Positions 1 to 19,106 are shown, counted from the first letter of the stretch. The stretch: 64,000 nucleotides of DNA from Ostreococcus lucimarinus (GCA_000092065.1 CP000594.1); one strand, 5' to 3'. Numbers and translations are program-made. The notes: a model not told the origin generated them from the letters alone.

Positions 1-3000
1 GCGCAGAATTCCTTGAAGACCCCATGTTGACGCGAAACACTCGTCTTCGAGAGCGCAAAAGCCGGGTAGTGCGGAAGAACATCCGACATTGTGTATCGTT
101 CCAACAAGTCTCCGCCAAAACCAATCACCCCGCTGGTGATTCGTCTATCCTTGATCACACCAGTCGCGTCCGGGCGCGTGACGCTCGTCTTGTAGATTTG
201 AGTTTTCTCCGGAATCGACCCTGTCGTATAGCCCTGAAACCACGTCATGTCGCGAAGATCGATTTCGAAGATACCGAGATCGTGCCAGTTCGCAGCCTTC
301 GAACACCGACTTGAGTCAGAGGCGTCGCATAAGCAAACGTGACCCCGGCGATCAACAAACGAGTCGCTCTTTTGGGCGCTCATATCCAACTCGAGATCGC
401 GCCATTCCAAAAACGGGCGCATGGACGTCTCAATCTTTTGGTCGCGGGAATACAACTCTCCCGACAACAAGCCCGCACAAGTGGATTGGTTTACAGACTG
501 GACTGAATCGACAGCACCGGGAAAGCACTGGCTCAAGGGATATCGACGTCGTTCAAATGTATCCGGCAAACCTTTGTCTCGTAGTCTTTGGAGAGCCTTT
601 TTGTCGTACCTGTATGGTGCACGCATGCTGTACGACAAGTCCTCTTCGACGGGTCGGCCGACCGGCCGGACAATGTGATCACTTTGCCGAGCGAGCGTAG
701 TCTCGGCCCAAATGGTGGTAGTATCGTCCCACGCGCCCATACATCCGACGTTGTCGCCCGCAAGCAGTCGTATCCATGCCTTGCGAGGTATTATGGACGT
801 CCCACCTTCAACAAAGATCATATTCGTACGCTGACCAGAGAGCAGCCGCTTCGGCCCAAATCGTATCTGCTGCTCATCATATTTGGGAATACAAACGCTA
901 GCCTTGTCGTCAAAACCATACTTGGCGCCGATCCGACGCGCGCATTGCAATCCGTAAGCGCACTGGTCGTCGCTCATGCAATGTCCTTCGTACGCCTGGC
1001 ATACCTCTCCACCTCCGAGACCTCCACAGTAGTCGTAGTCACCATTCGTGAGATTGAATCGAGCGTTGTAAGCTTCCTTGTTTTCAAAGTAGCCATCAGA
1101 GCCCGAAAAATCGGCGCAACACGCGTACGGGTGAATTTCACTCTCCAGCGCGCACTGCTTTCCAGGAAGTCCCCCTCGAGAAGCGACGAAATATCCTCTG
1201 TCTGTAGCGTTTCCACACGTTTCGTTTGTCCAATAATACTTGCCGACGATATTTGGATCTCCATAACGTCTGGGGTTGCCTCCCCATTGCGTTCGTACGT
1301 AGCTGAGATCACATGTGTCACCGAATGCAAACCCACCGACGACGCCGCTAAGAAGTTCGTTCGCTGAACACAGACGCGTGCCAGCCTGCGCACACTGTCG
1401 CATGGCAAAATGACGCGAGCCAATGCTCTTGCCGCTCACGCCAGGCAAATTTCCTCTCGCGACGTGTTCCATATCACTCAATGCCTTTTTACACTGCTCC
1501 GATTTCTTTGCGCTCGCATCTCGATCAAAGCATGCGGAAGTGTCCGGAGCCACGGCTCTGAAGCCAGGCGCGCCGCACGTGTCAGAGCCTTGCCTCAGCG
1601 CAAAATAGTTTTTGAAAGTGAATCCGTCGGGCTGCATTCCGCCTTCAAGCTTTTCACAGTTCCGTGTCACGTTACACTCATTGTAGCATATTTGCTCAAT
1701 CTCGGGTGGCCCATGACCAACCAATAAACCAATCCAACCGCTGGTATAGCGGCTAGAGTTTTTCGTCAAACTTGCCTTATCGTACGCAATAAGCCCTTGA
1801 GGATCATATGAATGCCAGTCCAAGTCGTATCGCTTCTCGCAGTAGTGAAGTGGCACCTCGCGCACGCAAGGATTTATCATATCACCAGCCGCAAAACACT
1901 TTACCTCCCGACGACGCGACACTGAGCATGTTTCAAAATCGGACGTCCAGTTCCGTGCGAGGCATGGCGACCATTCACCGATAGAGTAAAAATGATTATG
2001 TTGAAACACAATTCTGACAGTGTCATCGTCACCCGTTTTCAGCCTCAGGCCGTAATGCCATCCTTTCATTTGTGCATCCGCAGCGCCATTCACCATCACA
2101 GAAAGATCGCCCTCCAAATCACCAACGCCGTACTTTTTCTGAGTTTTAAAGTCGGTGAAACTCGCCACACAAATGGACTCTCGCCTATTGAAGTTAAACG
2201 AGTTGCAAGCCATGTTGCGAGTTGGACCTTTTTTTAGCGAATCACAGAGCGCAATACACTCTGCCATAGTGAAGGCGGCGCTGCTCTCGATCGCAATGGC
2301 TGGTACGTACTTTTCCGGGTACAAGCGATAATTGTCCTTCATTTTGTTGTCAAATCGACTGCACGCTCCTCGATTACTTCCGAGCATCGCGGATCCAACA
2401 GTATGCGTACAGGGTCCAAGTTTCGTGTCACCTCTGCAGCATGAGCGACCACACTGTGTGACTACGTTGGTCTTCGTGCGAGGCGCCATAGTCCCAGTGA
2501 TTGTATTTCTTCTCTCAGGGCACTGTAAACGGTTCCATTCCAAGTGTATCGAAAGTCTTCCGCCGACGATGGGGTCAATACATCCAGTGTCATCAATCTC
2601 GTTGCCATGATAACACTCGTGACCGGTCAGATTCTTGGCGAAATCAAAGCAGCACCCGTAATCATGGCACGCGCGCGCGCGAGAATCAATGGACATGAAC
2701 TCACTTCGAACGTCGCCGTAGTACGCCGTACACTTGAAACGATCTTCCATTTTAAGCGCACAATCAGCTTTACAAGAGTGGGTGTTACACTCTCGAGAAG
2801 TCTGTGGTAAAACACCACAGATGTGATCTTGGAGCTGCTCGCCGGATGTGGTGTTGACGCAAATCGCGCTCCGCGTTTGTCCACCTCGCTCGCACTTTCG
2901 CGAACAGTTACTCCATTCGCTAATTTCCCATCGGAATCCAAGTGGGTCTTCACCGTAACAATCAGCGTAGCCCCACAAGCCAGGCTTGGAGGTGTAGCAC

Positions 3001-3887
3001 CAAGGTCTCGTGGAAGGCTCGGCCGGCGCACGACCCACAAGGGTTGGTTCAAAGAATTCAACGACTGTCTGCCTTTGACGCGCGTTATAGTCGGTGGTAA
3101 AGGGAAAGACGCACGGCGCGCCACCAGCTGTACCTTCACACGTCGGTATCGCTCTTGAATGCACGACAAAATCTGCATCATTGAGCATCGAAGAGCCATC
3201 GGTGACGCTCTTGAGCAACATCGCGCTCGTCGTCGACACATCAAACGGACGCGTTGTCGAAAGTCCAAGCGTGTCGTGCTTTTTGTACATCCGCGCGGCA
3301 CAGTCCGTCGTGTTTATGCACGTATAATACCCTTGGCATTGGGAATCGCTTGCACAAAGCGTTCGTAGCCCAGTCTCTGATTTCCCGTTCACCGCGCGCC
3401 AAGCGAGAAGATCTGGAAACGCAACCATTTTCCCCTTGTGCGCCTTCCACTTGGCCTTGGAGTGCACACTCTTCTTGCGATAAAAATCACTCTCCGCCGC
3501 TCGTTGTAACCCGAATCCGCGACCGACCAAAGTACAGAAGTCCGTGGTCAGATCCTTCTTGAAACCCGCGCAGGCGAACCCTTTCGCGTCGCACTCGCGT
3601 TCACACGCGTCGAAAGACTCATAAGTCTCCATCAGGTTACTCCCGACTGGAATGCGGCTTCCGTGCCACCAATAATTTGTTAAATCATCCTCCAACGACC
3701 CAAGAGCGGCTTCGGGAACGTTCACGCCCGCTTTTTTCATGGCGCGCCCCAAGCGTCCTTCGGGAACGCACCAAGCATATGCCGTTCGACCGTGAATTCC
3801 GATTAACACGAACGTAGCGACGAGGATGAACGCGGCCGAGTTCCACCCAATCCATCTATCGCGCGTTCTTGTTCTTCTCGTCGTCAT
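1..3887 (-). CDS. Secreted multidomain protein, 3' end beyond window (>1,290 aa). Domains read from a manual reverse-complement translation: signal peptide, PAN/apple-like, FN2/kringle-like (CVFPF...PWCYT...WGYADC), thrombospondin type-1 repeat (WSNCSRKCERGGQTRSAIC), further Cys-rich PAN-like and possible lectin-like modules
   Basis: Manual reverse-complement translation from ATG at 3887-3885 gives an uninterrupted protein-like frame (carefully verified 3887->3000, less carefully to position 1). The N-terminus MTTRRTRTRDRWIGWNSAAFILVATFVLIGIHGRTAYA has signal-peptide character. The ORF is missing from the supplied track, consistent with the track listing only complete ORFs. Plus-strand ORFs 24..1367 are antisense artefacts. 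Confidence 0.6.
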   Translation of the reverse strand, partial: MTTRRTRTRDRWIGWNSAAFILVATFVLIGIHGRTAYAWCVPEGRLGRAMKKAGVNVPEAALGSLEDDLTNYWWHGSRIPVGSNLMETYESFDACERECDAKGFACAGFKKDLTTDFCTLVGRGFGLQRAAESDFYRKKSVHSKAKWKAHKGKMVAFPDLLAWRAVNGKSETGLRTLCASDSQCQGYYTCINTTDCAARMYKKHDTLGLSTTRPFDVSTTSAMLLKSVTDGSSMLNDADFVVHSRAIPTCEGTAGGAPCVFPFTTDYNARQRQTVVEFFEPTLVGRAPAEPSTRPWCYTSKPGLWGYADCYGEDPLGFRWEISEWSNCSRKCERGGQTRSAICVNTTSGEQLQDHICGVLPQTSRECNTHSCKADCALKMEDRFKCTAYYGDVRSEFMSIDSRARACHDYGCCFDFAKNLTGHECYHGNEIDDTGCIDPIVGGRLSIHLEWNRLQCPERRNTITGTMAPRTKTNVVTQCGRSCCRGDTKLGPCTHTVGSAMLGSNRGACSRFDNKMKDNYRLYPEKYVPAIAIESSAAFTMAECIALCDSLKKGPTRNMACNSFNFNRRESICVASFTDFKTQKKYGVGDLEGDLSVMVNGAADAQMKGWHYGLRLKTGDDDTVRIVFQHNHFYSIGEWSPCLARNWTSDFETCSVSRRREVKCFAAGDMINPCVREVPLHYCEKRYDLDWHSYDPQGLIAYDKASLTKNSSRYTSGWIGLLVGHGPPEIEQICYNECNVTRNCEKLEGGMQPDGFTFKNYFALRQGSDTCGAPGFRAVAPDTSACFDRDASAKKSEQCKKALSDMEHVARGNLPGVSGKSIGSRHFAMRQCAQAGTRLCSANELLSGVVGGFAFGDTCDLSYVRTQWGGNPRRYGDPNIVGKYYWTNETCGNATDRGYFVASRGGLPGKQCALESEIHPYACCADFSGSDGYFENKEAYNARFNLTNGDYDYCGGLGGGEVCQAYEGHCMSDDQCAYGLQCARRIGAKYGFDDKASVCIPKYDEQQIRFGPKRLLSGQRTNMIFVEGGTSIIPRKAWIRLLAGDNVGCMGAWDDTTTIWAETTLARQSDHIVRPVGRPVEEDLSYSMRAPYRYDKKALQRLRDKGLPDTFERRRYPLSQCFPGAVDSVQSVNQSTCAGLLSGELYSRDQKIETSMRPFLEWRDLELDMSAQKSDSFVDRRGHVCLCDASDSSRCSKAANWHDLGIFEIDLRDMTWFQGYTTGSIPEKTQIYKTSVTRPDATGVIKDRRITSGVIGFGGDLLERYTMSDVLPHYPAFALSKTSVSRQHGVFKEFC

Positions 3888-4150
3888 CGGTGCGTCAACG
3901 CCCGTCATGGGCGTTCGATTCTCGACCTCGTTGCCACGGATGGTGTTGGCGGAAACCTCGAGTGATAGCGCGGGTGAGTCTCGAACGAACGGGTGAGTTA
4001 CGGGTGAGTCTCGAACGACTGTTTCTTTTCTCGGCCACGCGCGCGTTTTCTTTTGTCCGCCTCTCTCTCTCGCGCGCGTCGTCGAGTGATGCTGGTGCCG
4101 CTCGTGACGGATTTAAGGGCTTGAACACCCGCGTGTAAAGGCAGACACTT

Positions 4151-4230
4151 TATATAGCACTTTGGGAGGTTAAAAGGTGTCCCAAAGTCTCATACATTGG
4201 CCTATACTTTGGCAACATCCCGCGCTTTGA
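4151..4230. repeat. Intergenic repeat module R1 copy A: TATATA-box-like + hairpin CTTTGGGAGG-ttaaaa-...-TCCCAAAG + ATCCCGCGCTTTGA
   Basis: ~80% identical to 16791..16870. The stem shows a compensatory change between copies (GGGAGG/TCCC vs GGGCGG/CGCCC). Confidence 0.6.
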
Positions 4231-4585
4231 TTACAGTACAGTAATATAACCCCCGCCAATGCGCGGGATGAATGGCATACATTCCATAGTATATGGGGAC
4301 CGGACCGGCGGGACGTGTGATTTTTACCGTATGGGTCACGACTCGTCATTCGGAGTACTCGTATGGAATAATGAAACACCATAACTGCATTTACTTTTTG
4401 GTTCATTAAAAAAACCGTACGGGCATTTACTGCAGAATTGGCCACTTTTCGCGCGGGTTTCACTGGACACGTGTCAAAAACGTGGCTTTTCTGAAACTCG
4501 ATTTTTGCTAGGGTTTAGCGTCTCAGTGTCCCGACGGAGATACAGTGCGGGGATCCCGTCGGCAGCACTCTCCGTCGCGCACGCA

Positions 4586-7500
4586 ATGTCGAAGAAATCT
4601 GATCCACTGTATGTACCAGTCAACACGTGTGAAGACGACACAGTCGGTCTTCTTCGGACGATCGATGAAGTTCAAGTAGACGAGGGTGAAACCAACGTTA
4701 CTTCGCCCGAAGATAATAATTGTGACGGCGGCGTTCGAGTAGTAGACATGGTTGGGTTGATACGGAACGGGCTGCATGCGCGGAGGTGCGCGAGCAGACG
4801 ACGGTCCACCGCGATCATCCACGTTTTGTTAACTGTCGTTCTGGCAAGTTTTTTGCGTTCGACCTTGGCGTTTGAAAGGACAGATGGGTTTCAAGGCGAG
4901 CTTGAAGATACCGCACACGAAGGACCGGGAGCATCAAGGAGTTCGGTGGCGAACGAAACCGCGGCGCTGGGGTGTGCATGGGGGATACCTTGTCCGCCAG
5001 TGGCTCAGGCGGTGGTGGATGTCGTGTCAGATCCACATGGTGCTGCCGAAGATGCTGCGAACCTGGCTGGAGATGGACTCAATAGTGCTGTAGATGCAGC
5101 AGCGGCTGGGGCAACATTTTTGTACGATCAAGGGACGGCAGCCGCGAGCGCAGCAGCGGCAGCGGCGACAGAGTTGGCGTCGGCTGGATTTGAATTCGCC
5201 AAGGGTGCGGCCACAAGCGCATACGCGATGGGTTGCTCCGCGGCGGCGATGGCTTGGAACACGGCGACGGCGGTCTATGACCGTATGAGCGACCCAGAAA
5301 AATTTTTGTCAGACATGATTGACAGCTTTCCCACATCTTTGGGGGATTTGAAGTCGCTTTCGGGCAAGGCACTCGCAGTCGGTGGAGAAGCCTTCGTGGA
5401 GATGAATGCGAATAATCCCGTTGGACGCCAAGCGCTCGCTGCTGTCAAAAAGGCAAACGAAATCGGCGGCAAGTACGGTTTCGAGAACCTTCAGAAATTC
5501 ACCGCTGTGGGCGCGTCGTTGACGAATCGCGTTATCCCCGGCGGTGGCATAATTTTTGAAGCCGTGGACGTCGTCGGTGAAACGGCGCAAGATGCTGTGG
5601 ATACTGCGATTCTCATCGTGGAGTCTATGCTCAACGCTCTTGAGTGCAAAGTGTCGCCAGTCGATGTTATGGAGGTGATACAAAAAGTTGTCATCGAACA
5701 AATATCAAGCTGGAATGCGTTTGCGAAAATGTTCGAGGAGAAGAAGGGGACTGACTTCTTCTACAAACTCGATCATGTCATCTGCAATACTCTTTGGACA
5801 GTGGCTATGCCGCATGCGGACTTGATGGTGACGGCGATTGGCGTCCTCCTGGAAAAAGTCCAAGCCACTTGTCCAGGAGTTATCCCAGCGGATTCCAAAC
5901 CAGCAGCTACGCTGGGGTTGATTTTTGACGCGTCTGTAAAAGGGGGCTCAATGAAAGGTGTATCTGCTGAGGTTGGCATCGGTGCTGACATTGATGGGAA
6001 CAAATTTTGCTATTTCGGCTCCTGCGCTTACGCAGGTATATCGTTTGGTGGCTACGGTGCTGATGGGACGATGTTGGCGGGACTCAGTGTTTGGAAGTCT
6101 ATGGATTCAGTTCCGGGCACCTCGAGTACATTTGCGTTCGCGGCCGATATCACCATGCCATTACTCCCCTCGTTTGATCCCGGAGTCACGTTCGTTTCAA
6201 ACGACGCCGGGCTCATCGGCATCAGTGTCTCAAAAGAAATCCCCGGCGGCGACGAACCAAGTGGTGAATTTTCGGTCACGAAAGGGCGATGCGTAACGCC
6301 TGTTTGTGTCAAGACAGATGGTAATCCTTGTGGTGAGGGTCAGGCTGCTTGGTCCGACGTGGGCTCGCATGCGACTGCTGCAGTGGAGGCGATCAAGACG
6401 GATGAGTGCATAGTTGCTGGTGCCGGTGTGATTGAACAAAATGGTGGAATTTCCGTGAGTCGAGAAATCCGGTTACCGGCGTCTGGGGTGAACCTTCTTG
6501 CCGATGCTGAGGCAAACCCGACGGGAATGAAGAATTTTAAGCCCTCAAGCGTGAGGATTCCTGAGGGTAAATTCTTACTTGCGTTTACCGGTGGTGATGA
6601 AGCATTTAAGGGGAGCGAGACAGTGATTCGTAGCTATAAGTCAAAACTCAACAACCGTTTGTATTCAATGACGTCCTTTGTCGTTTCTGACATTGCAGCC
6701 GAGTTTCACGAAGAAGCGCCAAAATCAGTTGGCCCAGAACATGCTGGTTCAATCAGTAAATGTAAAGCGATGTGCGCGGTGAAGAAACACTGCTGCAATA
6801 CGGATGAATCCATCGGAAGTAACCAGTATCTAAGCTGCCTACAGGCATGCGTCGTCCGCGTGCGTGGAACCGACGAGCGGACATGTAACTCTTACTGTGC
6901 ATCTGCAACGACTTCTCGTCACATTAATGGTTACATGTACAACCTCGCAACATCTTGCGCTGATGTCGTTGCATCCGAAGGAAAGTTATGTTCTACTCGG
7001 TACGGTAGCGATCGTTCAACCTGCCTATACGGTTGTTCGATCGGACGCGACCCCGAACAATCGCTCGCAGTCGTCAAATCCACTGGATTCTATATGCAAC
7101 TTCCTGCGGCACATGTTACCCCCAGGTCGACGAATAATTTGCGCGATCGGACGTTGAGTAGTGTGATTGTTCGAGCCGGGTTTGTTGTTAAACTGTACGC
7201 CGGGCGCGACCTGAAAGGTCAATACCTGACGCTCGGGAGTTCGGCGACGCTGTATGGTAACCATGCGAGGTTCTATTCATCCTTACGCGGATCATTCCCG
7301 AACACGAAGTTTGCCTGGGCAAATTTCAATGACAGAACTCGGAGCATCGCCATCTTGGAGGCGCCTGTGACGCTTTATACGCAACCCAATTTCCATGGCG
7401 ATCATGAATCAAAACTTGAGCATGCATTTGACTACACCAGTCTCGGTCCGACAGTCGGGGACAGGCATGTTAATTCCATCTTTCTAAGAGAAGGATCTGT

Positions 7501-10500
7501 GGTTGAAGTATACGAGGGACGCAGTTTCAACGGTCGAGGCATGCAGTTCATATCCAGCGTATCAGATGTCCGCCGCGCAACTGAATCCATCGGTGACCTT
7601 TCTAGACCGACATGGCAAAGAGTTTATGGAACTGCAAGTATGGTTGACGCGGGTCGTGAAGAAGTATATAGTATTCACGCAGATGACGTCGCAAATACAA
7701 AGCCAGTTGATAATTCTGGTGACTGGTCGGACTTTTTGACACTGAAGTGGAGTCATATTTCTGTTGGGCCCACAGGCCATGTATGGGCGATTCGTAAACC
7801 TTACGGCAACGCTTATCACTGCATGCCACATCAAACCTCTTGCAAGACCAAATGGGAGTATACCAGGCTCACCCAGCTGGATGCTGGAAGTTTGTACGTT
7901 TGGGGGGTGACGTACTCGGGATACGTATACAGGCATCTCGTGAACACACACGAGGGTTCATGGACACGTGTAAATGCGCCAGATACGATGAAGCATATCT
8001 CAATAGGCCCAAGTGGCGATGTCTGGGCGGTATCGACGACGAATAAAGTATATTTCTGCGTGCATCCGTGTACTGGATCGTGGCGTGTCATCGGCGCATC
8101 CGCACCCGTAAAACGTCTCATATTTACTGTGAACAATGACAAATATATGGCTCGTGTCGATTTGAAGACTGACGGTAGTATTAATTTCAACGCTGGTCAT
8201 AAAGTAGCTGGCTGGTTGAGTCTAAGCGGAATCACGTACGCCACGAGCGGTCTCAACTATCTTTCCCTAAACTCGCGTTATTGGGAACATTATAGTGGCA
8301 TGAATGGCTACTGGTCGCCAGCCCAATACTCGTGCTCGAACGGCCTCGTTTCTGTGACTGGGCTCGTGAAGACAAAAAATCATGGCTGGGGGCAGGTCAT
8401 CGGTACTCTCCCGTCAGGGTGTCGTCCGACGAAAGCACTCATCTTCACCACGAATAACCACGATGAGCAGGCGCGAGTGAACGTATACGCCGACGGGACG
8501 ATCAAATGGGGTGCCGGCGGCAAGGGTCACGGATGGTTGAGCCTAAGTAACATTGTCTTTTCGACCAGTGGCAACGCGCTTTTACCTCTGAGCAATGGTT
8601 GGGCGCACTACAGTGGCACGAGTGGCTACTGGTCGCCTGCTGAGTACTCGTGCGCCGACGGCCTCGTGGTCTTGAGTGGATTAGTACGCGGTAGTAACTG
8701 GGGTTCTACTATCGGCACTCTTCCTCCGGGTTGTCGTCCGAAACAAGCTCTCATCTTCACCACGAACAACAGCGATAAGCAAGCGCGAGTGAACGTGTCA
8801 CCGGGGGGGGTGATCAAATGGTCACGTGGTGGCAAGGGCCACGGTTGGTTGAGCCTGAGCGGCATCGTATTTGCAATGACTGGGCTGCAGTTGATGCCTC
8901 TGAGCAACGGTTGGAAGTACTATAACGGCGCGAGAACGAGCGGGTATTGGGCACCCGCACAGGTCGCGTCTGTGCGCGGCCTCACCGTTGCTCAAGGCCT
9001 TATCAAAGGCGGTGGATGGGGTGGAACAATGGCAAAAATTACCGGTGGATGCGGATATATGAGTGATTTAATGTCCCTGACTAAGAAGAACGCGGGTCAA
9101 CATAGCACAGCACATAATGGCGTTGCAAGCCGCCCGTTGACGTCGACTCCAAATGGGCGCTGGGGGGGTGGCACGTGCACGCACACGAATCATGCGTCCG
9201 ACCCATGGTGGCGACTTGATATGGGGACGACGAGGACCTTGAGTTCGGTGGAGTTGTTGAATCGCAACGACTGCTGCAGTGACCGCTTTATCGGCCTCCG
9301 CGTCTACATCAGCAATCATAACTCCTACGTAAAGGATCATCCGAGTAACAAACAGTGCGGGCAGACGTTGGGATCGCCGAATACTGCCTGGAATATATTC
9401 GACTGCGGCGATGCCATCTCTGGGCGCTACGTATACGCCACCCTATATGGTAAAGCAGCACCGTTAACTATCTGCGGTGTCAGGATGTTCGAATCAAATA
9501 CGATGATAAAGCAGCTGGACGTTGGAAAGCGCTATGTTTACGGAACCAGTACGAATGGTCATCTTTTTAAAATCCGTGCCGATGGGGGCGAGGATAACTG
9601 GTCCCTCGTACATCGTTATAGCGAATTCGGCGGTATTGATGCCAATTATGTTTCAGTCTCACCGCATTCCGAACAATCGTCGTTCCTGTGGGTTACAAAC
9701 CAAGCGAACGAAATTTATCGCCAATCCATCGGAATACAAATCTCTTCCATGAGAGTCGCCTCGGCAATCGTAACTGCTTACAAAGGTGTGGGATTTACCG
9801 GTGATAGTCTGCCCCTGACTTCCGGTTTTTATAACTTTAAGACGCTCGAGGCAGACTCAGACGCCGGATTTAAGCTCACGAACCTCAGAGCGTTTGTGCG
9901 AAGCATCAAGTCTATAAGGATCCATCCAGACTACGAGGTTGAGCTGCGCGGTTATAATCAAGCACGAGCAGTCGTCACCTCTAGTACAATGGGAGTACAC
10001 GATTTTCATAAACTGGACACAGAGGGCAAGGAACACGAAGAGAATATAGTTGGAGCTACAAGATTTCCGCGACCGAGCGGTGTCTCACGCAAATCGACGT
10101 TTATGCCAATCGAAGCAACTACGCTAGGAACATGGATCCAAACACGAACTGCCAACGTTTACGTGATGTCAGATCTATCAGCCACCCCAAGTGCTCTCAT
10201 TAGGTACATTGCTGCGTACGGCGATGCAGAATATTGCAAAATGATCATGTTTCACGTGCGTCACGGCGATGAAGTCTCTGTTGTGCCTGAGGAGGCTGGA
10301 TATGCGACTTTTGGCATCAGAGATGCGTCTTCCGACAAGTGTCAGAATCGCGACGGTGTACTATCGCTCTGGCGTATAAAGCAAACTCCGAGATTGGCGC
10401 GCCGCGCGACAGATGCAGGCTACGGCATCGGAAAGTTGAAATTCTCGATTTTGGGAGGCTGGACGGGAGAAATAGCCTCAATGAAAGTGATGAGAAAACT

Positions 10501-10996
10501 CACTTATGTCCAAGGGTACTCCGGTGGCCGTCATCGTAATGAGGGAGGAAATCCAAAACGGACTCCACGAGAATGTCGGGACATCGCTAAAAGCAAGGGT
10601 TTACCTGCCTGGGGATTTCGAACCGGCCGTCATAATGATCCTAACTGGCGGTTTACGTGCTTCTTTTATGAGCACGGATTTGGGAGATTTGCGGGTAATG
10701 ATGACACAATGCATATGACAGGATGCGTCGATATATCCCGAAAGACCGCAAATGGCTGCGCACTGAGCGCATCAGCCAGCGCGCGGTTGGGTTCTGAAGA
10801 CTTAGAGACTTACCCTCGCGCGATGGCGAGACCAAAGGCGAGACTGCTAGAATCAGACTGGTACTATATCTCTGTCTGCTGTGTTCTCGTCAGCCTAGCG
10901 TCTGTGGTAGCGTTCGTCGCATTTCGACGCTCGCGAACGTCGGGCAAACGCATTCTACTTGAACGAGTCTCAACGAACTACGGTGCCACAATTTAA
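4586..10996 (+). CDS. Giant (~2,100 aa) membrane-anchored multi-lectin protein: N-terminal Ala/Gly-rich region, beta/gamma-crystallin-like segment, tectonin-type beta-propeller repeats, three ~105-aa tandem repeats, F5/8-type-C/fucolectin-like domain, C-terminal TM helix + short tail
   Basis: Single ORF listed 4505..10996 with a TTG start; the first ATG is at 4586 (MSKKSDP) and an alternative at 4748 (MVGLIR) is followed by a hydrophobic signal/anchor. Three tandem repeats (IFTxNNxDxxARVxxxxDGxIxxxxGxKxxGWLSLS...GYWSPAxYSCxxGLV). A CCSDRFIGLRVYI fucolectin-like motif. C-terminal WYYISVCCVLVSLASVVAFVAF TM helix. Confidence 0.7.
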   Translation: MSKKSDPLYVPVNTCEDDTVGLLRTIDEVQVDEGETNVTSPEDNNCDGGVRVVDMVGLIRNGLHARRCASRRRSTAIIHVLLTVVLASFLRSTLAFERTDGFQGELEDTAHEGPGASRSSVANETAALGCAWGIPCPPVAQAVVDVVSDPHGAAEDAANLAGDGLNSAVDAAAAGATFLYDQGTAAASAAAAAATELASAGFEFAKGAATSAYAMGCSAAAMAWNTATAVYDRMSDPEKFLSDMIDSFPTSLGDLKSLSGKALAVGGEAFVEMNANNPVGRQALAAVKKANEIGGKYGFENLQKFTAVGASLTNRVIPGGGIIFEAVDVVGETAQDAVDTAILIVESMLNALECKVSPVDVMEVIQKVVIEQISSWNAFAKMFEEKKGTDFFYKLDHVICNTLWTVAMPHADLMVTAIGVLLEKVQATCPGVIPADSKPAATLGLIFDASVKGGSMKGVSAEVGIGADIDGNKFCYFGSCAYAGISFGGYGADGTMLAGLSVWKSMDSVPGTSSTFAFAADITMPLLPSFDPGVTFVSNDAGLIGISVSKEIPGGDEPSGEFSVTKGRCVTPVCVKTDGNPCGEGQAAWSDVGSHATAAVEAIKTDECIVAGAGVIEQNGGISVSREIRLPASGVNLLADAEANPTGMKNFKPSSVRIPEGKFLLAFTGGDEAFKGSETVIRSYKSKLNNRLYSMTSFVVSDIAAEFHEEAPKSVGPEHAGSISKCKAMCAVKKHCCNTDESIGSNQYLSCLQACVVRVRGTDERTCNSYCASATTSRHINGYMYNLATSCADVVASEGKLCSTRYGSDRSTCLYGCSIGRDPEQSLAVVKSTGFYMQLPAAHVTPRSTNNLRDRTLSSVIVRAGFVVKLYAGRDLKGQYLTLGSSATLYGNHARFYSSLRGSFPNTKFAWANFNDRTRSIAILEAPVTLYTQPNFHGDHESKLEHAFDYTSLGPTVGDRHVNSIFLREGSVVEVYEGRSFNGRGMQFISSVSDVRRATESIGDLSRPTWQRVYGTASMVDAGREEVYSIHADDVANTKPVDNSGDWSDFLTLKWSHISVGPTGHVWAIRKPYGNAYHCMPHQTSCKTKWEYTRLTQLDAGSLYVWGVTYSGYVYRHLVNTHEGSWTRVNAPDTMKHISIGPSGDVWAVSTTNKVYFCVHPCTGSWRVIGASAPVKRLIFTVNNDKYMARVDLKTDGSINFNAGHKVAGWLSLSGITYATSGLNYLSLNSRYWEHYSGMNGYWSPAQYSCSNGLVSVTGLVKTKNHGWGQVIGTLPSGCRPTKALIFTTNNHDEQARVNVYADGTIKWGAGGKGHGWLSLSNIVFSTSGNALLPLSNGWAHYSGTSGYWSPAEYSCADGLVVLSGLVRGSNWGSTIGTLPPGCRPKQALIFTTNNSDKQARVNVSPGGVIKWSRGGKGHGWLSLSGIVFAMTGLQLMPLSNGWKYYNGARTSGYWAPAQVASVRGLTVAQGLIKGGGWGGTMAKITGGCGYMSDLMSLTKKNAGQHSTAHNGVASRPLTSTPNGRWGGGTCTHTNHASDPWWRLDMGTTRTLSSVELLNRNDCCSDRFIGLRVYISNHNSYVKDHPSNKQCGQTLGSPNTAWNIFDCGDAISGRYVYATLYGKAAPLTICGVRMFESNTMIKQLDVGKRYVYGTSTNGHLFKIRADGGEDNWSLVHRYSEFGGIDANYVSVSPHSEQSSFLWVTNQANEIYRQSIGIQISSMRVASAIVTAYKGVGFTGDSLPLTSGFYNFKTLEADSDAGFKLTNLRAFVRSIKSIRIHPDYEVELRGYNQARAVVTSSTMGVHDFHKLDTEGKEHEENIVGATRFPRPSGVSRKSTFMPIEATTLGTWIQTRTANVYVMSDLSATPSALIRYIAAYGDAEYCKMIMFHVRHGDEVSVVPEEAGYATFGIRDASSDKCQNRDGVLSLWRIKQTPRLARRATDAGYGIGKLKFSILGGWTGEIASMKVMRKLTYVQGYSGGRHRNEGGNPKRTPRECRDIAKSKGLPAWGFRTGRHNDPNWRFTCFFYEHGFGRFAGNDDTMHMTGCVDISRKTANGCALSASASARLGSEDLETYPRAMARPKARLLESDWYYISVCCVLVSLASVVAFVAFRRSRTSGKRILLERVSTNYGATI

Positions 10997-11265
10997 ACAA
11001 ATCATTTCAAACCATCCTATTATTGGCATTGTGGTAAGTACAATCGACCTCACGGAAAAGGCAGGCGGTACTGGCGTCGAAGAGTCGCGTGAGATTTCGC
11101 TTAAGATTTCGGCACCCTCGCTTAAGATCTCTTCAGAATCGAATCTCTGAACGCAAGGCGTGGATGTACATTAAACCATGAACGAGGCGGGACACGGTTC
11201 GATTTTTGGATTACAAGTGTAGGTCTACTTTTACGTTTCGTGGACTCCGCTCGAGTCGGCCGATG

Positions 11266-12075
11266 TCACCATGTCAGGTGTTTCGAGTGCACTAGAGACG
11301 TGACCGCCGATACACAGGACGTCGAGCTCGGCGTGCCTGATTTCACGACTCGGCGACCATGGTTTGAAACCGAAATGACCATCGGCTTCAGGCCCAGGCG
11401 CGGCCGCAATGCTACTTTAAACTTAATTTTTTTTTTTTGAAAAAAGAGTAGTAAGAGTAATAAAAATAAACTTTTTTTTTGTTTGAGTTGGGGCCCCCCC
11501 AACATGATAAAACCGCACATCGACGTTGATGTACCACATGTAAGATTTCTCCGGGAACCAATCGTGTGAGTGAAGTGGTCAAACCAAGCCACGCAACTCA
11601 TCGACCGTAAATTGATACTTGTCGAGACTGCGCTTCGAAGGCAGCGTGCCGCGCGCTCGAGCATTCTTGAGGCACGTCTTACGCAGTATCTTTTCGCGTG
11701 CTGCTTGTAATAATTGAGTTGTCTGTAGTTACCATCGCCGCCGTCCCGCTTCGGCGTATATTGAGCTCTGCTGTAGGCCGGACTCTCGTCCACGTTCTCG
11801 TGGCACGCCTGCTTCTGGCTGCGTCCAGTAGCTCGGGAGTTGAATAAGCCGTCACGCTTCTCTCTCATGTAGGCACTTTTACGTTGATGGAGCTCTCCAG
11901 CTGGAATGTCCTTTTCGAGAACTCTCACGTCCGCGTCGCCAAACGTGAAGATTGGATGCCGTGCGTATTTATGCGAGGCAAGGCGCGCTCTGATCGAACC
12001 TGTCGTCGATCCGATGTACGTTTTGTCACATTTCGCATTATCGCTATACATTTCGTACACGCATCCCGACGGCAT
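11266..12075 (-). CDS. GIY-YIG family (homing-type) endonuclease; C-terminal ~90 codons run through a poly(A/T) tract without a stop (possibly decaying)
   Basis: N-terminus CVYEMYSDNAKCDKTYIGSTTGSIRARLASHKY matches the GIY-YIG motif (GIY...YIGS...R...H; compare I-TevI GIYQIKNTLNNKVYVGSAKDFEKRWKRH). Downstream E...N (REKRDGLFNS) fits. Low-GC codon usage. Confidence 0.55.
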   Translation of the reverse strand: MPSGCVYEMYSDNAKCDKTYIGSTTGSIRARLASHKYARHPIFTFGDADVRVLEKDIPAGELHQRKSAYMREKRDGLFNSRATGRSQKQACHENVDESPAYSRAQYTPKRDGGDGNYRQLNYYKQHAKRYCVRRASRMLERAARCLRSAVSTSINLRSMSCVAWFDHFTHTIGSRRNLTCGTSTSMCGFIMLGGPQLKQKKSLFLLLLLLFFQKKKIKFKVALRPRLGLKPMVISVSNHGRRVVKSGTPSSTSCVSAVTSLVHSKHLTW

Positions 12076-12244
12076 TTGTCCTGGTTACCTATCTATCCCT
12101 AAGAAAATATTGTTGCCTCCTCCTGCGGTTTGCAGTCACATTCGAGAGACCATAGGTACTCGTGTCGCTGCGTGGGGTGCAAGGTCCGGGATGTAGATAT
12201 CGAACCGCCCGATTTCACACCTGGACGTTCGTGATCCGTCGAGA

Positions 12245-12435
12245 CCTGACGAAATGACGAACTTGTTTTGTCGTCCCGAAATTCGTCAGCCCGTCGTTCG
12301 GTCACACTTTGTGTGTACCAATGATGAAAATGACGAAATGTTAAAATATTTTAATGTTTATTTTTATTTTAGATCTATGACAAGCAACAGTGTAGACCTT
12401 TATGAAAACAGTTCGTCATTCGTCATTTCGTCAGG
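12245..12435. promoter_or_regulatory. Inverted repeat (CCTGACGAAATGACGAAC / GTTCGTCATTCGTCATTTCGTCAGG) flanking an AT-rich core between the D5 3' end and the GIY-YIG 5' end
   Basis: Arms at 12245..12262 and 12411..12435 are near-perfect reverse complements. The core 12325..12375 is >80% AT. Confidence 0.35.
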
Positions 12436-12500
12436 ATCCAAACCATGGTCTTTTTGGTGTCTTGTTGAGTCTTCATATTGCAAATGTACGAATTACAAAA

Positions 12501-14711
12501 TTAGTATGAGCACCAGACGACCGCCGGCGCGAGCTCCGTCTCCCCCGTGTACCCATTGTTCTTCAGCCACTCGAAGCACCCGTCGCGGTCAATTTCCCAA
12601 TAAACGCCCTTCTCGTCCCTACCTTGCCTCAGGTGGTCCTCTTGCATTGGGACCCTGTGGCCCTTTTCCTTCTTGAAGAAGTCCTTGAGCTTATTACCGA
12701 CCTTCGTCGCGCTATCTTGACCGCGCGCAGCCGCTGGCAACCACGTCTGGTATTCGATGAAGATGTCACTGTTGCGGATTTTATTTCCAACCCACTTCTC
12801 AGGGAATTCAACAGTGACGCAATGCTCAAACCATCGAGTGAACTTGGGCATGCATCCACGCTTCATTTCCGAATACGCATCGGTCGTAGGTCTGTCTTTG
12901 ACGTAGTCAAAGGTCGATAGGTCGAGCCCCATGAGATGGTCGTAGATTGCCCTCAAGTTCCTCGGATCCCTGATGTAAACCTCGCGGAATTCCTTCAAGA
13001 ATCCAGTCTGGTCGTTCAAGTGCGTGAGCAGTGGCTCCATGACGACGAACCGACGATCACTCATTTCCAGAAAGACCGGGTAGTCGTCGTTCGAGAAAAA
13101 TAGGAACCCAACCAGATTCATGATGACGTACAGCTGCACGTGCTTCGGGTTGATTGTGAAACTCGTGTCCGTGAGCATCGACTTCAGCAACTTTCTATAC
13201 ATTTTCATGATGCACTCATCTGCTTCGTTCAACGCGAGGCACTTTTTGCCTTCAATCATGTTCGCATGCGTCCCAAATATGTCCTTTTTCGGATCAGCCG
13301 TCTCGTGAAACGTCTTGCCCATGAGCGCGTGAAGCAGGTGCAGGAAAGTGCCCTTGCCGGTACCTTGGACTCCTCGAAACACGAGCGACGTGATCGGCTT
13401 CTCTTCGGGTCTCTGGAAGAGACACGCGAACCAATTCGAAGCGTACTCGAGCGCATTTTCTGAACCGCCACATAGCACCAGGAGGAGCTCGAGGAAAGGC
13501 TTCACGTCGCCCTCTTTGCCCAGTTCACTGGGGATGCCTTCGACCGGGTAGCCTCGCCACAGATTGTACGTCTTGTTGCTGCAGTTTTTCGGGACGACGT
13601 CGAGGTTATCGTACACCCGTTTATTGTCGTCGTCGAGCCACTTTTCGATGAACCCGTTTTTCTTGCCTTTCCTCAAGACACCGTTCTCATCGACAAAGGA
13701 GAGCTCTCGATAGCGCCTCACCAAAGCGGCCTCGCTGTACTTGGTAATGTCCCCGGTGGTTCCATAACAGCTATCGTCGCAGAAGAGGTCCTTGGTTAAG
13801 ATCTTTGCGACGTGCTTCTCGAACTCACGGCGGACCTCGATGTAGCCCGCAGACGTGCCCTCTTTGATTTCGTTCTGCTCCTTTTCGGTGATACCGGTCA
13901 CCAAACACCCAACCTCAAAGCGAAACTGTCTGGGCTTGCAGTTGCCATGGTTTTTCACGGTGAGCACGCCGAGACCGACCTCGGCGACGTAAAAGTGATT
14001 CCCACCGCCCCTTCCATTGCCTTCGTGGAAGCCCCCACAGCAAGGACATTGGCCCACAGTGGTGCCTCGCTGTGGGCGACATTGGTCGCATTCAAAATCA
14101 TACGATGTCGCTCCACTGAGCCAATGTATGCCCGTGAACCCCATTTCCTCGAGCAAAGGTGTCACAGATGCTTGCGTAAAGCTGCACTCCGTGTCCGCGC
14201 GTTCGACCTTGTGACCGACTTTGCCATCAAGGAAACTGTACAAATCGTTGGGCATCGGTGGTAAATTGTTGATGTCGCCTCGGAGTAGCTCGTAGCCCGG
14301 GGCATCGGCACCGACCACGTAGTTACCCGTCGTACGGATATCGACGAACCCTTCGATGCCCACCGTGCCTTTCCAATCGCCGAATCGTTCTTCGTCCCAT
14401 GCGAAGTACGTGTGGTACCCGCCTGATCGCGTTTTGACGATATACGCGCCTTCCCCGCCGACCTTGCGCGTCAACATTTCTTCCGTGAGTTCAAACTCGC
14501 ACTTGCCACCGTAACAATCCCAGTCGATGACGAGGACACGGTTCGGTCGCCCTGTCAGCACGCCGTACATTTCTCCTGGGATGACTTTCTGCGTATTCCG
14601 TTCATAGTTTGCTTCATCGAGGAACCCCCTGCCGCATGTTGGCTCCTTGTCCTGGTCGAGTGGGATCAGATGCATGCCGTTCGTAAATTCTCTGGCGTCC
14701 ATATATATCAC
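12501..14711 (-). CDS. D5-like primase-helicase: N-terminal PrimPol (archaeo-eukaryotic primase) domain, D5_N, SF3 helicase (NCLDV/PLV/virophage/phage-P4 type)
   Basis: 736-aa ORF. PrimPol motifs (VLVIDWDCYGG...GGYHTYF...FVDIRTTGNYVVGA). Walker A VFRGVQGTGKGT and Walker B CLALNEADE of an SF3 helicase. Low-GC codon usage. Confidence 0.85.
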   Translation of the reverse strand: MIYMDAREFTNGMHLIPLDQDKEPTCGRGFLDEANYERNTQKVIPGEMYGVLTGRPNRVLVIDWDCYGGKCEFELTEEMLTRKVGGEGAYIVKTRSGGYHTYFAWDEERFGDWKGTVGIEGFVDIRTTGNYVVGADAPGYELLRGDINNLPPMPNDLYSFLDGKVGHKVERADTECSFTQASVTPLLEEMGFTGIHWLSGATSYDFECDQCRPQRGTTVGQCPCCGGFHEGNGRGGGNHFYVAEVGLGVLTVKNHGNCKPRQFRFEVGCLVTGITEKEQNEIKEGTSAGYIEVRREFEKHVAKILTKDLFCDDSCYGTTGDITKYSEAALVRRYRELSFVDENGVLRKGKKNGFIEKWLDDDNKRVYDNLDVVPKNCSNKTYNLWRGYPVEGIPSELGKEGDVKPFLELLLVLCGGSENALEYASNWFACLFQRPEEKPITSLVFRGVQGTGKGTFLHLLHALMGKTFHETADPKKDIFGTHANMIEGKKCLALNEADECIMKMYRKLLKSMLTDTSFTINPKHVQLYVIMNLVGFLFFSNDDYPVFLEMSDRRFVVMEPLLTHLNDQTGFLKEFREVYIRDPRNLRAIYDHLMGLDLSTFDYVKDRPTTDAYSEMKRGCMPKFTRWFEHCVTVEFPEKWVGNKIRNSDIFIEYQTWLPAAARGQDSATKVGNKLKDFFKKEKGHRVPMQEDHLRQGRDEKGVYWEIDRDGCFEWLKNNGYTGETELAPAVVWCSY

Positions 14712-15181
14712 ATAAGAAAAGAATTCTTTAAGCCGTGTTTTTCCTGGTCACATCGGCGCGATGACTGATTTTCAAGTTTTTCAACAGCCTGGAAAAGCAC
14801 GCCAGCACGCCCCACTGGTCAACATTTTGCCACTTTTTCGACGAGATCGGGGTACTGCAAAGCACACGGCGAAGACGGGTGGCCGATGATCCATGTGTCC
14901 GTGTCTTCTCTGATGATTCGCTCCCGTTCATGGCTCAAGTGGTCGCGCGACCTCGCGCGTGAACGAAGGTGCCAAATTTTAGGTACCAGAGGTGCCCATT
15001 TCTTCGTGGTGAGATGGTCCCTCGTGTACCACGCCGCTCCCCTTTAAGTATGAAAAGTTATGTCCAATATATTGCGCGCGATGTCCGATGGTACACCATA
15101 CAATTTCATAGTTAAGCCACACTTATTATATGACGACAGTGCCTACCTGTCGGTGGTCACGGAAAAGTTGCGTCTCAGACT

Positions 15182-15320
15182 GAGGATGGCGTGGCTCATG
15201 CGAGCTATATATACCTCATATATACATATATTAACACTTATAACACTATTAATGTACAATTGATTGGATGAGGTGCTCAGTCCACCCGCGCGAGGTCAAC
15301 AGCAGCAATTGTCTATGCAC
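15182..15320. repeat. Direct repeat R2 copy A (~140 bp), includes the last ~20 nt and 3' flank of the metallothionein-like CDS
   Basis: ~90% identical to 16869..17008. Confidence 0.6.
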
Positions 15321-15643
15321 TTGGAGCATGAGTTTTTGCACTCGCACGACGGACACGCGCAGGAGGTGCATCCGCACGACTTACACGTGGTCGCATCGGG
15401 ACACGCGCATTTGTCGGGGCCACAAGCATCACAGTCTTTCGGGCAGCACGCCTTGTCCGTGGACTCAGATTGTACCGTCCGTGCTGCAACCCGCGTCGGG
15501 CGCGAGACGACGCGCACGGCGCGTGGCGCGGTTCTTGACAATACGAAATCTGGTATCTGCGTACTCTTTACCTTAACGGCGGAGACTTTGAGCATTGTTG
15601 CGTCGAGGAATGGGCCAAGGGTAAGTAACCTCGTGGTCGGCAC
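15296..15643 (-). CDS. Metallothionein-like cysteine-rich protein (19 Cys in the C-terminal 50 aa) with a Cys-free, transit-peptide-like 65-aa N-terminal extension
   Basis: C-terminus CCPKDCDACGPDKCACPDATTCKSCGCTSCACPSCECKNSCSKCIDNCCC. The N-terminus is S/T/R/V/A-rich with few acidic residues. Head-to-head with ferritin. Confidence 0.5.
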   Translation of the reverse strand: MPTTRLLTLGPFLDATMLKVSAVKVKSTQIPDFVLSRTAPRAVRVVSRPTRVAARTVQSESTDKACCPKDCDACGPDKCACPDATTCKSCGCTSCACPSCECKNSCSKCIDNCCC

Positions 15644-15684
15644 GTGCCCGCCTTATACAATCGACGCCTGAAAAGGGAGACTGG

Positions 15685-16542
15685 ATGAGATCGAGGGCAC
15701 CCCGTGAGCGATCACTCTTCGACGCGGAACTCGTTCCTGTAGACGGCCAGCCACCACTCGAACGACCATACGGCAGCACAAAAGTACATCCACAACGTGT
15801 ACGTATCGAAATGGCTGCCTATACTCAAGCGACGTTAACAGCACCTTCGTCGTCGACAGCCGTAAGCAATTCGAAGATAAGACTACGCCGTTCACGAACA
15901 ACTACGCGCACACATTCTGATCCGTCCGAAAGTACGCCGTTGAGTGAAGAGGCGCAAATCATAGTTGATGCATCGGAGGCGTACCCAGCGCAGACAAGCG
16001 TGGATTATTCGTTCGCAAGGAGTGGGTTCAGTAACCAGTGTGAACGAGCACTCAACGAGCAAATCAATGTCGAGTACAATATTTCGTACGTCTATCACGC
16101 CATGTGGGCGTACTTCAATCGTGACAATATCGCATTGGCTGGCTTTGCTGAACACTTTCGAAAAGAGTCACTGGAGGAGCGTGCGCATGCGGAACAACTC
16201 ATGGAGTACATGAACTTACGAGGCGGCAAAGTTGAGCTCCAACAATTGTTACCACCACAGAGTGAATACGATCGCCCGGAGAAAGGATGCGCACTATTAG
16301 CCCTGGAGCTGAGTTTGAGTCTCGAAAAGTTGAATAAAGAGAAACTGTGTGAACTGCATCGCGTCGCTGAGGATGCAGGAGACGCACATATGTGCGATTT
16401 TATTGAAGGCGAGTTATTAGACTCGCAGGTTCAAAGTGTGCGACAGGTTAGCGAGATGGTCGCCACGCTATTACGCATGGGACCGCCAGCAGATGGTATG
16501 GCAACTTGGCACTTCGATCAAACCTTACTTGAGGTGGCATAG
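15685..16542 (+). CDS. Ferritin (plant/algal type, with N-terminal targeting/extension peptide; alternative start ATG at 15811)
   Basis: QCERALNEQINVEYNISYVYHAMWAYFNRDNIALAGFAEHFRKESLEERAHAEQLMEYMNLRGGKV...SLEKLNKEKL...WHFDQTLLE matches the plant ferritin consensus (ferroxidase-centre residues E, Y, E..H present). Confidence 0.9.
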   Translation: MRSRAPRERSLFDAELVPVDGQPPLERPYGSTKVHPQRVRIEMAAYTQATLTAPSSSTAVSNSKIRLRRSRTTTRTHSDPSESTPLSEEAQIIVDASEAYPAQTSVDYSFARSGFSNQCERALNEQINVEYNISYVYHAMWAYFNRDNIALAGFAEHFRKESLEERAHAEQLMEYMNLRGGKVELQQLLPPQSEYDRPEKGCALLALELSLSLEKLNKEKLCELHRVAEDAGDAHMCDFIEGELLDSQVQSVRQVSEMVATLLRMGPPADGMATWHFDQTLLEVA

Positions 16543-16652
16543 AAGCGGATTGTATCTCGTTGAGTCTAGTCACTTTCGTGTGCTCGTTTCGTTGGTTTCT
16601 GGTTACGAGTTCTTCCGTTGTTCTAAATATAACATATATTTAGACATATCCA

Positions 16653-16779
16653 AACCCTAGTACAATCACCCTAGGGTTTAGTCAAACTTTAATCAGTTTT
16701 ATCTAAATTAATTTTCATCTGTCGTCGCGAAAGATGAATCCTCGCGACAGAAAAACAGGTCTAAACCTTAAACCCTAAC
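16653..16779. repeat. Cluster of telomere-like / telo-box motifs (AAACCCTAG, CCCTAGGGTTTAG, TAAACCTTAAACCCTAAC)
   Basis: TAGGGTTTAG equals 1.5 units of the plant-type TTTAGGG telomeric repeat. Similar motifs occur at 4509..4518 and 19091..19106. Confidence 0.5.
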
Positions 16780-16790
16780 TTCGGTTGGGC

Positions 16791-19090: not shown

Positions 19091-19106
19091 GCCCTTAGGG
19101 TTTAAT
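19091..19106. repeat. Telomere-like motif CCCTTAGGGTTTAATG at the island/host boundary
   Basis: Sequence seen directly; lies just upstream of the GC jump at ~19,200. Confidence 0.4.

Follow-up and report, generated by a model that had tools for sequence, protein, structure and literature searches.

The 64,000-nucleotide stretch of Ostreococcus lucimarinus DNA investigated here (GCA_000092065.1, CP000594.1; in the following called the window) contains, at 4505-10996 on the plus strand, a gene for a giant protein of stacked lectin-type modules, referred to as the lectin gene and the lectin protein. This gene lies within a low-GC element bordered by inverted repeats. For the lectin gene, the analysis established the open reading frame (ORF), its domains, an intact fucose triad, the predicted fold of the repeats and the conservation in wild populations. 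With moderate confidence its product can be regarded as a multivalent lectin or adhesin of the plasma membrane, of type I (or doubly anchored), which would expose an ectodomain of about 2000 amino acids (aa) composed of carbohydrate-recognition modules.

A single uninterrupted ORF had been proposed for 4505-10996, and this could be confirmed. Starting with the first TTG behind a stop, it comprises 2163 codons with no stop among them. In random sequence the odds of such a run, (61/64)^2163, are about 1e-45 by our own arithmetic; the ORF has a G+C content of about 52%. All aa numbers given here are counted from this TTG. In-frame ATG codons are located at 4586 (aa 28) and 4748 (aa 82). The translation from ATG 4586 (M28) is residue-for-residue identical with XP_001421296.1 (ABO99589.1, UniRef100_A4S7M0), an uncharacterised "predicted protein" of O. 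lucimarinus CCE9901. This public model covers 4586-10996 (+) with 2136 aa plus stop, and the frame is open upstream to 4505. The public record holding the gene has 708,927 bp, and UniRef automatically named A4S7M0 'Fucolectin tachylectin-4 pentraxin-1 domain-containing protein'. A literature search with the accession numbers of the protein yielded no paper mentioning them. Three start codons were considered in the first-pass annotation, TTG 4505, ATG 4586 and ATG 4748. The TTG is a product of ORF listing with the bacterial code and can be dropped; ATG 4586 (the public model) and ATG 4748 both stay as candidates. Three of the 22 codons differing between the two alleles described below are found within the 54 codons between M28 and M82. 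This hints at a weaker constraint in this part than elsewhere and does not settle the choice of the start.

The suggested fucolectin/F5-8-type-C-like domain was identified at aa 1530-1663 (9092-9493, +). In Pfam, F5_F8_type_C_2 (PF22633, NedA-like) matched aa 1556-1643 with 52.9 bits and F5_F8_type_C (PF00754) scored 36.4 bits; the NedA-like and F5/8 type C matches span aa 1538-1643. A sequence search (phmmer) of the Protein Data Bank (PDB) revealed FBP32 of striped bass (3cqo, E 8e-30 to 9e-34), the eel agglutinin AAA (1k12, E 2e-16) and 4gwi (E 1.5e-13). Streptococcal fucolectin-related proteins were also among the matches with solved structure. Since these are F-type lectins, the discoidin-like domain can be specified as an F-type lectin domain. 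The motif of F-type lectins is defined as His ... Arg-x-Asp-x4-Arg/Lys, with h2DGx as calcium motif (PMC5712786). In the lectin protein H1560, R1587-N-D1589 and R1594 (CTHT...NRNDCCSDR) occupy the triad columns of AAA and FBP32, and by sequence the fucose-binding triad (H1560, R1587, R1594) is intact. The domain of about 135 aa aligns end to end with AAA (1K12) and FBP32 (3CQO), with the His/Arg/Arg triad and the adjacent Cys-Cys kept. In contrast to these two lectins, it is present as a single copy inside a 2136-aa membrane protein, and the calcium motif is not kept. The presence of such a domain is not new, as F-type lectin domains were already recorded for Ostreococcus hosts and for prasinoviruses, those of the hosts being joined to other domains (PMC5712786). 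Regarding a viral origin, no close viral relative of the domain was detected in IMG/VR, and a profile search gave only giant-virus F-type lectins with 26-39% identity at best.

Three tandem repeats of about 105 aa (aa 1201-1307, 1308-1411 and 1412-1516; 8105-9052, +) precede the F-type lectin domain. They had been described as near-identical, without an assignment. Number, length and tandem arrangement of the units were confirmed; the identity is lower, with 45-69% on the protein level and 75-81% on the DNA level in the best stretches of a self-comparison. Tandem Repeats Finder reported no DNA array over the three repeats. By their sequences they would represent old duplications. The Pfam scan gave no match for the repeats of the window, and PF08931 was only found sub-threshold (20.3 bits) in the homologue P0005. 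An AlphaFold2 model of aa 1185-1530, calculated from an alignment of 15 sequences, reached a predicted local distance difference test score (pLDDT) of 89.5 and a predicted template modelling score (pTM) of 0.88. According to this model each repeat is predicted to have the fold of a viral-type receptor-binding head, and Foldseek agrees with this assignment. Against predicted viral structures 40 matches passed a limit of E 1e-3. Every named match in the table belongs to a tailed phage, mostly to tail, baseplate or receptor-binding proteins. Its closest known counterparts are the receptor-binding protein heads of siphophages (Listeria phage PSA gp15, 6R5W; the lactococcal phages p2, TP901-1 and bIL170) and the knobs of adenovirus and reovirus. 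Viral receptor-binding heads work as trimers of separate chains. In contrast, three diverged copies are joined here within a single chain, that of a cellular membrane protein, and the fused repeats may form a single-chain pseudo-trimer.

An exhaustive HMMER search with aa 964-2163 resulted in 6446 proteins (E <= 1e-3), and giant proteins were numerous among the best matches. The features shared with these matches were the repeat or the F-type lectin domain, found in thousands of proteins. For 141 related proteins examined with a repeat profile, up to 19 copies per protein were counted and three was the commonest number; arrays in head register usually consist of three units. Among the named sources of homologues are Symbiodinium natans and a myxobacterial genome bin. 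The repeat co-occurs with tectonin in three relatives (P0011, P0014, P0075) and with ricin-type lectin domains in P0202.

Tectonin-like beta-propeller blades, as claimed before, were detected well above the threshold. The Pfam family Tectonin (PF19193) matched aa 1045-1196 with 55.8 bits (E 5.6e-15, cut-off 30 bits). Blades 1-4 and the first strand of blade 5 are assigned to aa 1036-1199 (7610-8101, +; 54.5-55.8 bits). The match begins at position 3 of the profile and ends at position 152 of 216, where the repeats start. Directly after the F-type lectin domain a faint tectonin-like stretch follows (aa 1668-1740), weak alone with 16 bits; the rest of blade 5 and blade 6 are assigned to aa 1666-1748 (9500-9748, +). 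After removal of aa 1200-1665 in silico, one continuous Tectonin match runs through the junction (profile 3-181) and the score is raised from 54.5 to 67.5 bits, with the last ~35 profile positions staying unmatched. The alignments with Laccaria Tectonin 2 (5fsb) and with the propeller 3hxj also cross the splice point without a break. As judged by eye, one blade is composed of WRVIGA ahead of the cassette and IKQLDVGKRYVYGTSTNGHLF behind it. The triple head and the F-type lectin domain, about 465 aa, thus appear to be placed in the blade-5 loop of a six-bladed propeller. Furthermore, both ends of the repeat array are half a unit off the register of the phage heads; this shift would bring the two ends together, which would fit an insertion in the propeller. 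In PDB sequence alignments the propeller resembles Laccaria Tectonin 2 (5FSB, E 9e-9) and fish-egg lectin (4RUQ, E 6e-5). In contrast to both, it appears to be interrupted in blade 5 by the cassette. A split propeller of this kind was not seen in the relatives examined; in P0075 the propeller is followed by three heads.

The propeller is adjoined by beta/gamma-crystallin-like parts. For the segment already claimed, Greek-key motifs were located at aa 880-1030 (7142-7594, +), where Pfam Crystall is at the threshold and Inhibitor_I36 above the cut-off (25.5 bits versus 21.1 bits when aa 855-1040 were scanned alone). A second, weak motif is found at aa 1749-1830 (9749-9994, +; Crystall E 0.17 only). 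Three exact YxxxxFxG signatures could be read, YTQPNFHG and YEGRSFNG in the first part and YKGVGFTG in the second. In general, every domain named in the first-pass annotation was found by profile or structure-sequence search.

Hydropathy analysis (Kyte-Doolittle) of the lectin protein indicated two hydrophobic segments only, aa 101-122 and aa 2118-2142. The latter (10856-10930, +; peak 1.70) corresponds to the single C-terminal transmembrane helix proposed before and is followed by a basic tail of 21 aa. The N-terminal segment (4805-4870, +; peak 1.67 at aa 101) had not been described previously and is a putative signal peptide or signal anchor. Translated from M82, it would read as a classic signal peptide with basic stretch, hydrophobic core and TLA/FE, a putative cleavage site recognised by eye. 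With M28 as start, a signal anchor preceded by a cytoplasmic lead of 73 residues would result. With either start the bulk of the protein would face outward. The signal at the N-terminus and the transmembrane helix at the C-terminus fit a cell-surface protein for carbohydrate recognition, as had been suggested, and so do the confirmed lectin domains.

The N-terminal region was correctly described as Ala-rich, with 20-27% Ala in aa 101-300. The Ala-rich part at aa 125-355 (4877-5569, +) is probably helical and gave no Pfam or PDB match. It is followed by a conserved Cys/Gly-rich module (aa ~357-612; 5573-6340, +), which is common to smaller membrane proteins of Ostreococcus type with 643 aa (L021/L023) and 669 aa (L004). 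With tblastn the module was detected in these metagenome contigs at E 1e-14 to 1e-20. The relatives are the ectodomains of the smaller proteins, and the alignment has 42 invariant columns, 6 Cys among them. In the 643-aa and 669-aa proteins the C-terminal anchor comes directly after the module. The giant protein looks like a member of this family with about 1500 residues of lectin modules put between module and anchor. For aa 340-745, AlphaFold2 with a single sequence reached a pLDDT of 34 only. Towards the propeller a Cys-rich segment was found (aa 750-850; 6752-7054, +; 8 Cys per 100 aa; no Pfam match). A membrane-proximal Cys domain (aa 2000-2085; 10502-10759, +) looks PAN/apple-like by eye and gave no Pfam or PDB match. 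The whole part aa 1830-2085 was without Pfam match and equally without usable match in the PDB sequence search; PDB sequence searches with aa 125-860 and aa 1745-2110 also yielded nothing usable. In IMG/VR no relative at close range was detected, neither for the Cys/Gly module nor for the C-terminal half of the protein.

The complete lectin gene was found in nine metagenome contigs of independent assemblies (Tara Oceans included) with 99.5-99.99% DNA identity, and the frame was always open. Two alleles were distinguished, one identical to CCE9901 and the other differing at 13-14 residues. Between them 8 synonymous and 14 non-synonymous changes were counted, which corresponds to a ratio of non-synonymous to synonymous rates (dN/dS) of about 0.54. 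No full-length relative beyond this species-level cluster was detected, either with the whole protein, which matched the same gene only, or in the exhaustive search with aa 964-2163. Among the best 150 matches of the latter search there was no full-length one, and tectonin-B, the second crystallin-like part and the C-terminal domains were present there only in truncated copies of the gene. Partial copies consisting of the last ~180 codons and downstream DNA occur in other contexts (P0020 cluster, 32 members; contigs L065 and L066). L065 2784-4095 and L066 2382-3589 correspond to 10454-10996 of the window plus downstream DNA to ~11810, with 95-98% identity. They are fused to different upstream sequence, resulting in a 303-aa ORF, the one of the P0020 cluster. 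Another database entry of 149 aa (P0089; window ~7870-8310) differs from the protein of the window by T>M, S>L, H>Y, P>L, A>V and R>C. All these changes are C-to-T, and the entry looks like an assembly of bisulfite-converted reads and not like a real variant; bisulfite data exist for O. lucimarinus (bioRxiv 10.1101/2025.04.21.649811).

For the lectin protein the following arrangement is proposed. The N-terminal hydrophobic signal would take the chain into the secretory pathway, and the single C-terminal helix would anchor it, with the 21-residue basic tail in the cytoplasm. Outward from the membrane, the ectodomain would consist of the Cys-rich domain, crystallin-like motifs and the six-bladed tectonin propeller with the cassette in blade 5. 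This cassette would comprise three covalently linked receptor-binding heads of phage type and one fucose-binding F-type lectin domain. Distal to the propeller, crystallin-like motifs, the Cys-rich segment and then the Ala-rich/Cys-Gly module of about 500 aa would follow. The propeller would present the F-type lectin and the triple head together, so that fucosylated and other glycans on another surface (a bacterium, a virus particle or a conspecific cell) could be bound by avidity through many weak sites.

Several observations weigh against this arrangement. About 45% of the protein (aa 125-860 and 1830-2085) is without assigned fold, and Pfam Crystall scored 25.0-25.4 bits, exactly on its cut-off of 25 bits. 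RPLTSTPNG is found where FBP32 has NAIDGN; with the calcium motif h2DGx not kept, the sugar binding could be altered. The packing as a pseudo-trimer is suggested by the high pTM only, and the insertion into the propeller is deduced from alignments rather than from inspected coordinates. Expression and location of the lectin protein are likewise predictions from its sequence. The dN/dS of 0.54 is derived from 22 substitutions and fits constraint weakly. Topology, surface location, glycan binding and any biological role, like the pseudo-trimer and the split propeller, are what we infer from the features described.

The surroundings of the lectin gene were examined, too. The first 19 kb of the window have a G+C content of 46-56% versus ~60% beyond, and the low-GC part runs off the left end. 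Within it, the lectin gene is located inside an element of 14,928 bp (4239-19166) with imperfect inverted repeats of ~45 bp, which are ~75% alike. Neither this transposon-like element nor its D5-type primase-helicase was part of the first-pass annotation. The left inverted repeat (CAGTAATATAACCCCCGCCAATGCGCGGGATGAATGG...) is found at 4239-4285 (+), with TA before it at 4237-4238, where the homology to the contigs starts. The right one is found at 19105-19166 (-), with TA after it at 19167-19168, and equals the border between low and high G+C. Taken as transposon ends, the borders read TA/CAGTAATATAACCCCC... at 4237-4239 and ...GGGGTAGATTACTGTACTG/TA at 19166-19168. Both tips are 5'-CAGTAAT (left TA/CAGTAAT..., right ...ATTACTGTACTG/TA), and the terminal pattern is CAGTAAT...GCGGGATGA. 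At the junctions a palindrome TTAC(A/T)GTACAGTAA is present, with flanking arms containing CATCCCGCG / CGCGGGATG. Within the 64 kb of the window the palindromic core occurs only at 4231 and 19156/19161 (0.08 expected in shuffles), and the 9-mers of the arms only at 4216, 4262 and 19131.

The metagenome contigs match the window only from ~4237 rightwards and have three unrelated contexts to the left. At the other end, contig L032 is 99.96% identical to 14395-19168 and diverges exactly at 19168 into another CAGTAAT... terminus. About 30 such palindromic junctions were counted in ~340 kb of related loci; in IMG/VR the terminal-repeat pattern was absent. At L023 5338-5421 the palindromic core TTACTGTACAGTAA occurs four times within 85 nt, as if several tips were stacked. 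A simple insertion of 4231-15180, splitting a repeat unit, was considered and replaced once the palindromic junctions and arms were mapped. The unit concerned, of ~218 nt, is intact at 16791-17008; of the split copy, the first 80 nt are at 4151-4230 (80%) and the last 141 nt at 15181-15321 (90%). The first part (4151-4230) is itself a terminus of CAGTAAT type, and the split is only partly explained by the inverted repeats.

For Tc1/mariner/pogo transposons, TA flanks together with 5'-CAGT tips are characteristic. The element resembles IS630/Tc1/mariner/pogo and cargo-carrying giant transposons by its CAGTAAT-tipped, TA-flanked inverted repeats and by genes not related to transposition. In contrast to transposons of Tc1/pogo type, a DDE transposase is missing, and the element has a D5-type primase-helicase and a GIY-YIG-like ORF instead. 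Pfam scans of the ORFs of the element and of neighbouring ORFs in related loci detected no DDE transposase or integrase. The scanned ORFs did not include any gene for a capsid, a packaging ATPase, a polymerase or an integrase either. A polinton-like virus or an element of virophage type was set aside, as no capsid or polymerase gene accompanies the primase-helicase. The outlier regions of O. lucimarinus were reported to be largely free of transposable elements (bioRxiv 10.1101/2025.04.21.649811).

Besides the lectin gene, the element contains further genes. An ORF with GIY-YIG-like N-terminus (YIGSTTGSIRARLASHKY) is located at 11266-12075 (-); the motif was recognised by eye and Pfam gave no match. 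The D5-type primase-helicase of 736 aa (12501-14711, -) has an AEP-like N-terminus and a DUF5906 / P4-type helicase part. DUF5906 matched with 54.5 bits; the TIGR01613 match is weak (E 3.7e-5, only 22.7 bits versus a cut-off of 108.7 bits). A ferritin gene (15685-16542, +; PF00210, 104 bits) also lies within the low-GC element. Just inside the right inverted repeat, a protein of 596 aa is encoded (17178-18968, -), which is Cys-rich (4.5% Cys) with an Ala-rich C-terminal part and one hydrophobic segment near aa 476; no Pfam match was obtained.

For the D5-type protein, 29 related loci were detected in metagenomes of the Joint Genome Institute, most with ~98% protein identity, several with 81-83% and one with 57%. 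The near-identical class has 95-97% DNA identity. Their reading frames are unbroken and evolve under purifying selection, with dN/dS of 0.13-0.23 at dS 0.05-1.5. The best relative in IMG/VR has 26% identity over 213 residues, and exact look-ups of the D5 protein and of one housekeeping neighbour returned no record. The contexts of the copies are mosaic. Some adjoin ordinary housekeeping genes (L019), and several are found beside different giant proteins with C-terminal anchor: one of at least 2780 aa that combines G8, CEMIP beta-helix and an F-type lectin domain 62% identical to that of the lectin protein (L017), a 1606-aa SRCR/He_PIG protein (L039) and two proteins of 2208 aa (L028) and at least 3139 aa (L022) without Pfam match. 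At L028/L029 8391-9524 (+) a 377-aa protein with Peptidase_S74 (50.6 bits) adjoins a primase-helicase fragment. Peptidase_S74 is the intramolecular chaperone of endosialidase and tail-spike proteins; this is another module of phage-tail type in primase-helicase loci.

In other copies (L011, L019, L030, L004) window position 15450 is joined to 19104, and the ferritin and 596-aa genes (15457-18999) are missing. Thus, these two genes look like an addition specific to the copy of the window. The right-hand limits of homology of the D5 copies differ between contigs, so that recombination within the variable region explains part of the mosaic pattern; a clean transposition of the element is not proven. 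Of the sequence at 11389-11476 a second, inverted copy is located at the end of homology in L013, L020 and L029 (primase-helicase module). All lectin-bearing contigs also break between 11173 and 11461, and this part looks like a hotspot of recombination or of assembly. Tentatively, these loci can be taken together as an undescribed Ostreococcus family of TA-flanked inverted-repeat elements of ~15 kb with D5-type primase-helicase, which would have different giant surface-protein genes beside or inside their copies, the lectin gene being one cassette. Such a family is possible rather than probable, and it may have gone unnoticed so far.

Carriage in the 14.9-kb element probably accounts for the patchy, context-variable distribution of the lectin gene. 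This raises the question whether the protein serves the element and not the alga, by remodelling or masking the surface against prasinoviruses or competing elements or by a cell-cell contact that spreads the element. Such a role is rather unlikely in our view. It would agree with the position of the gene between inverted repeats together with a D5-type gene, with the three different sequences abutting its left end in metagenomes, with the giant C-terminally anchored proteins beside related D5 copies and with a repeat fold known from viral attachment proteins. However, neither a transposase nor an integrase was detected in the element, a housekeeping-type ferritin gene is enclosed by the same inverted repeats and no close viral homologue was detected; moreover, the right-hand boundaries of the D5 copies vary, and recombination in the variable region explains much of the mosaic.

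An adhesin for the recognition of gametes or mates, tied to a low-GC 'outlier' region, was also taken into account. A link to gamete recognition or to virus resistance had been suggested in the first-pass annotation, and the analysis gave evidence neither for it nor against it. As the low-GC segment continues beyond the left end of the window, it could mark the edge of a large outlier region. In the ocean there are two discrete alleles, and F-type lectin repeats act in the fertilisation of bivalves (PMC5712786). Nevertheless, nothing at the locus is tied to a mating type and no meiosis or mating genes are located nearby within the window, which makes this function improbable. It is more doubtful still that the ORF is decaying or silent, kept open by chance or by recent arrival, and functionless. 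The existence of near-identical copies only, with no full-length homologue found elsewhere, the truncated 3' copies in other contigs and a dN/dS of 0.54, not strongly below 1, could be explained in this way. A functionless ORF is hardly reconcilable with 2136 codons open in nine of nine independent assemblies, with intact binding-site residues of the F-type lectin domain and with the confident folding of all three repeats in the predicted model. A multivalent lectin or adhesin on the surface of the alga remains the preferred interpretation.

On both sides of the element further genes were identified. To the left, a divergent ORF of at least 1302 aa extends beyond the end of the window (1-3908, -) and contains a thrombospondin type 1 domain (31.9 bits). 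It has many cysteines, an N-terminal hydrophobic stretch (by eye a membrane anchor) and its own terminus of CAGTAAT type at ~4190-4236. To the right, from ~19.2 kb, tightly packed eukaryotic housekeeping ORFs with ~60% G+C follow, in keeping with O. lucimarinus, among them an ABC-F ATPase, a HECT ligase, a MIF4G/MA3 protein, an AAA ATPase, a protein with eIF2A domain, RRM and WD40, a PUF protein and a Vps5-type protein. The first high-GC gene past the element (19223-20422, -) ends in an acidic and serine run (D12, S19). This run is coded by a GCT/ACT trinucleotide repeat (19239-19300), the start of which is ~70 nt from the right end of the element.

Ostreococcus, the smallest free-living eukaryote, has naked cells without wall or scales. 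On such wall-less cells a multi-lectin protein of 2000 residues is a strong candidate for the contact with viruses, bacteria or mates. The sequence became public with the CCE9901 genome, its F-type lectin domain is catalogued, and mosaic surface lectins are already known as a class. The fold assignment of a ~105-aa repeat that is widespread in marine metagenomes is new, as are the candidate single-chain triple head, the apparent insertion of a cassette into a tectonin blade and the modular relation to smaller membrane proteins. A further new point is that the gene lies in an element with a primase-helicase and TA-flanked inverted repeats, the position of which varies in nature; this element is the part most worth following. 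If the element family exists, wall-less cells could swap or reposition surface receptors, e.g. under virus pressure. Movement of surface-protein genes by the element would then be a testable mechanism for the rapid diversification of cell surfaces in picophytoplankton.

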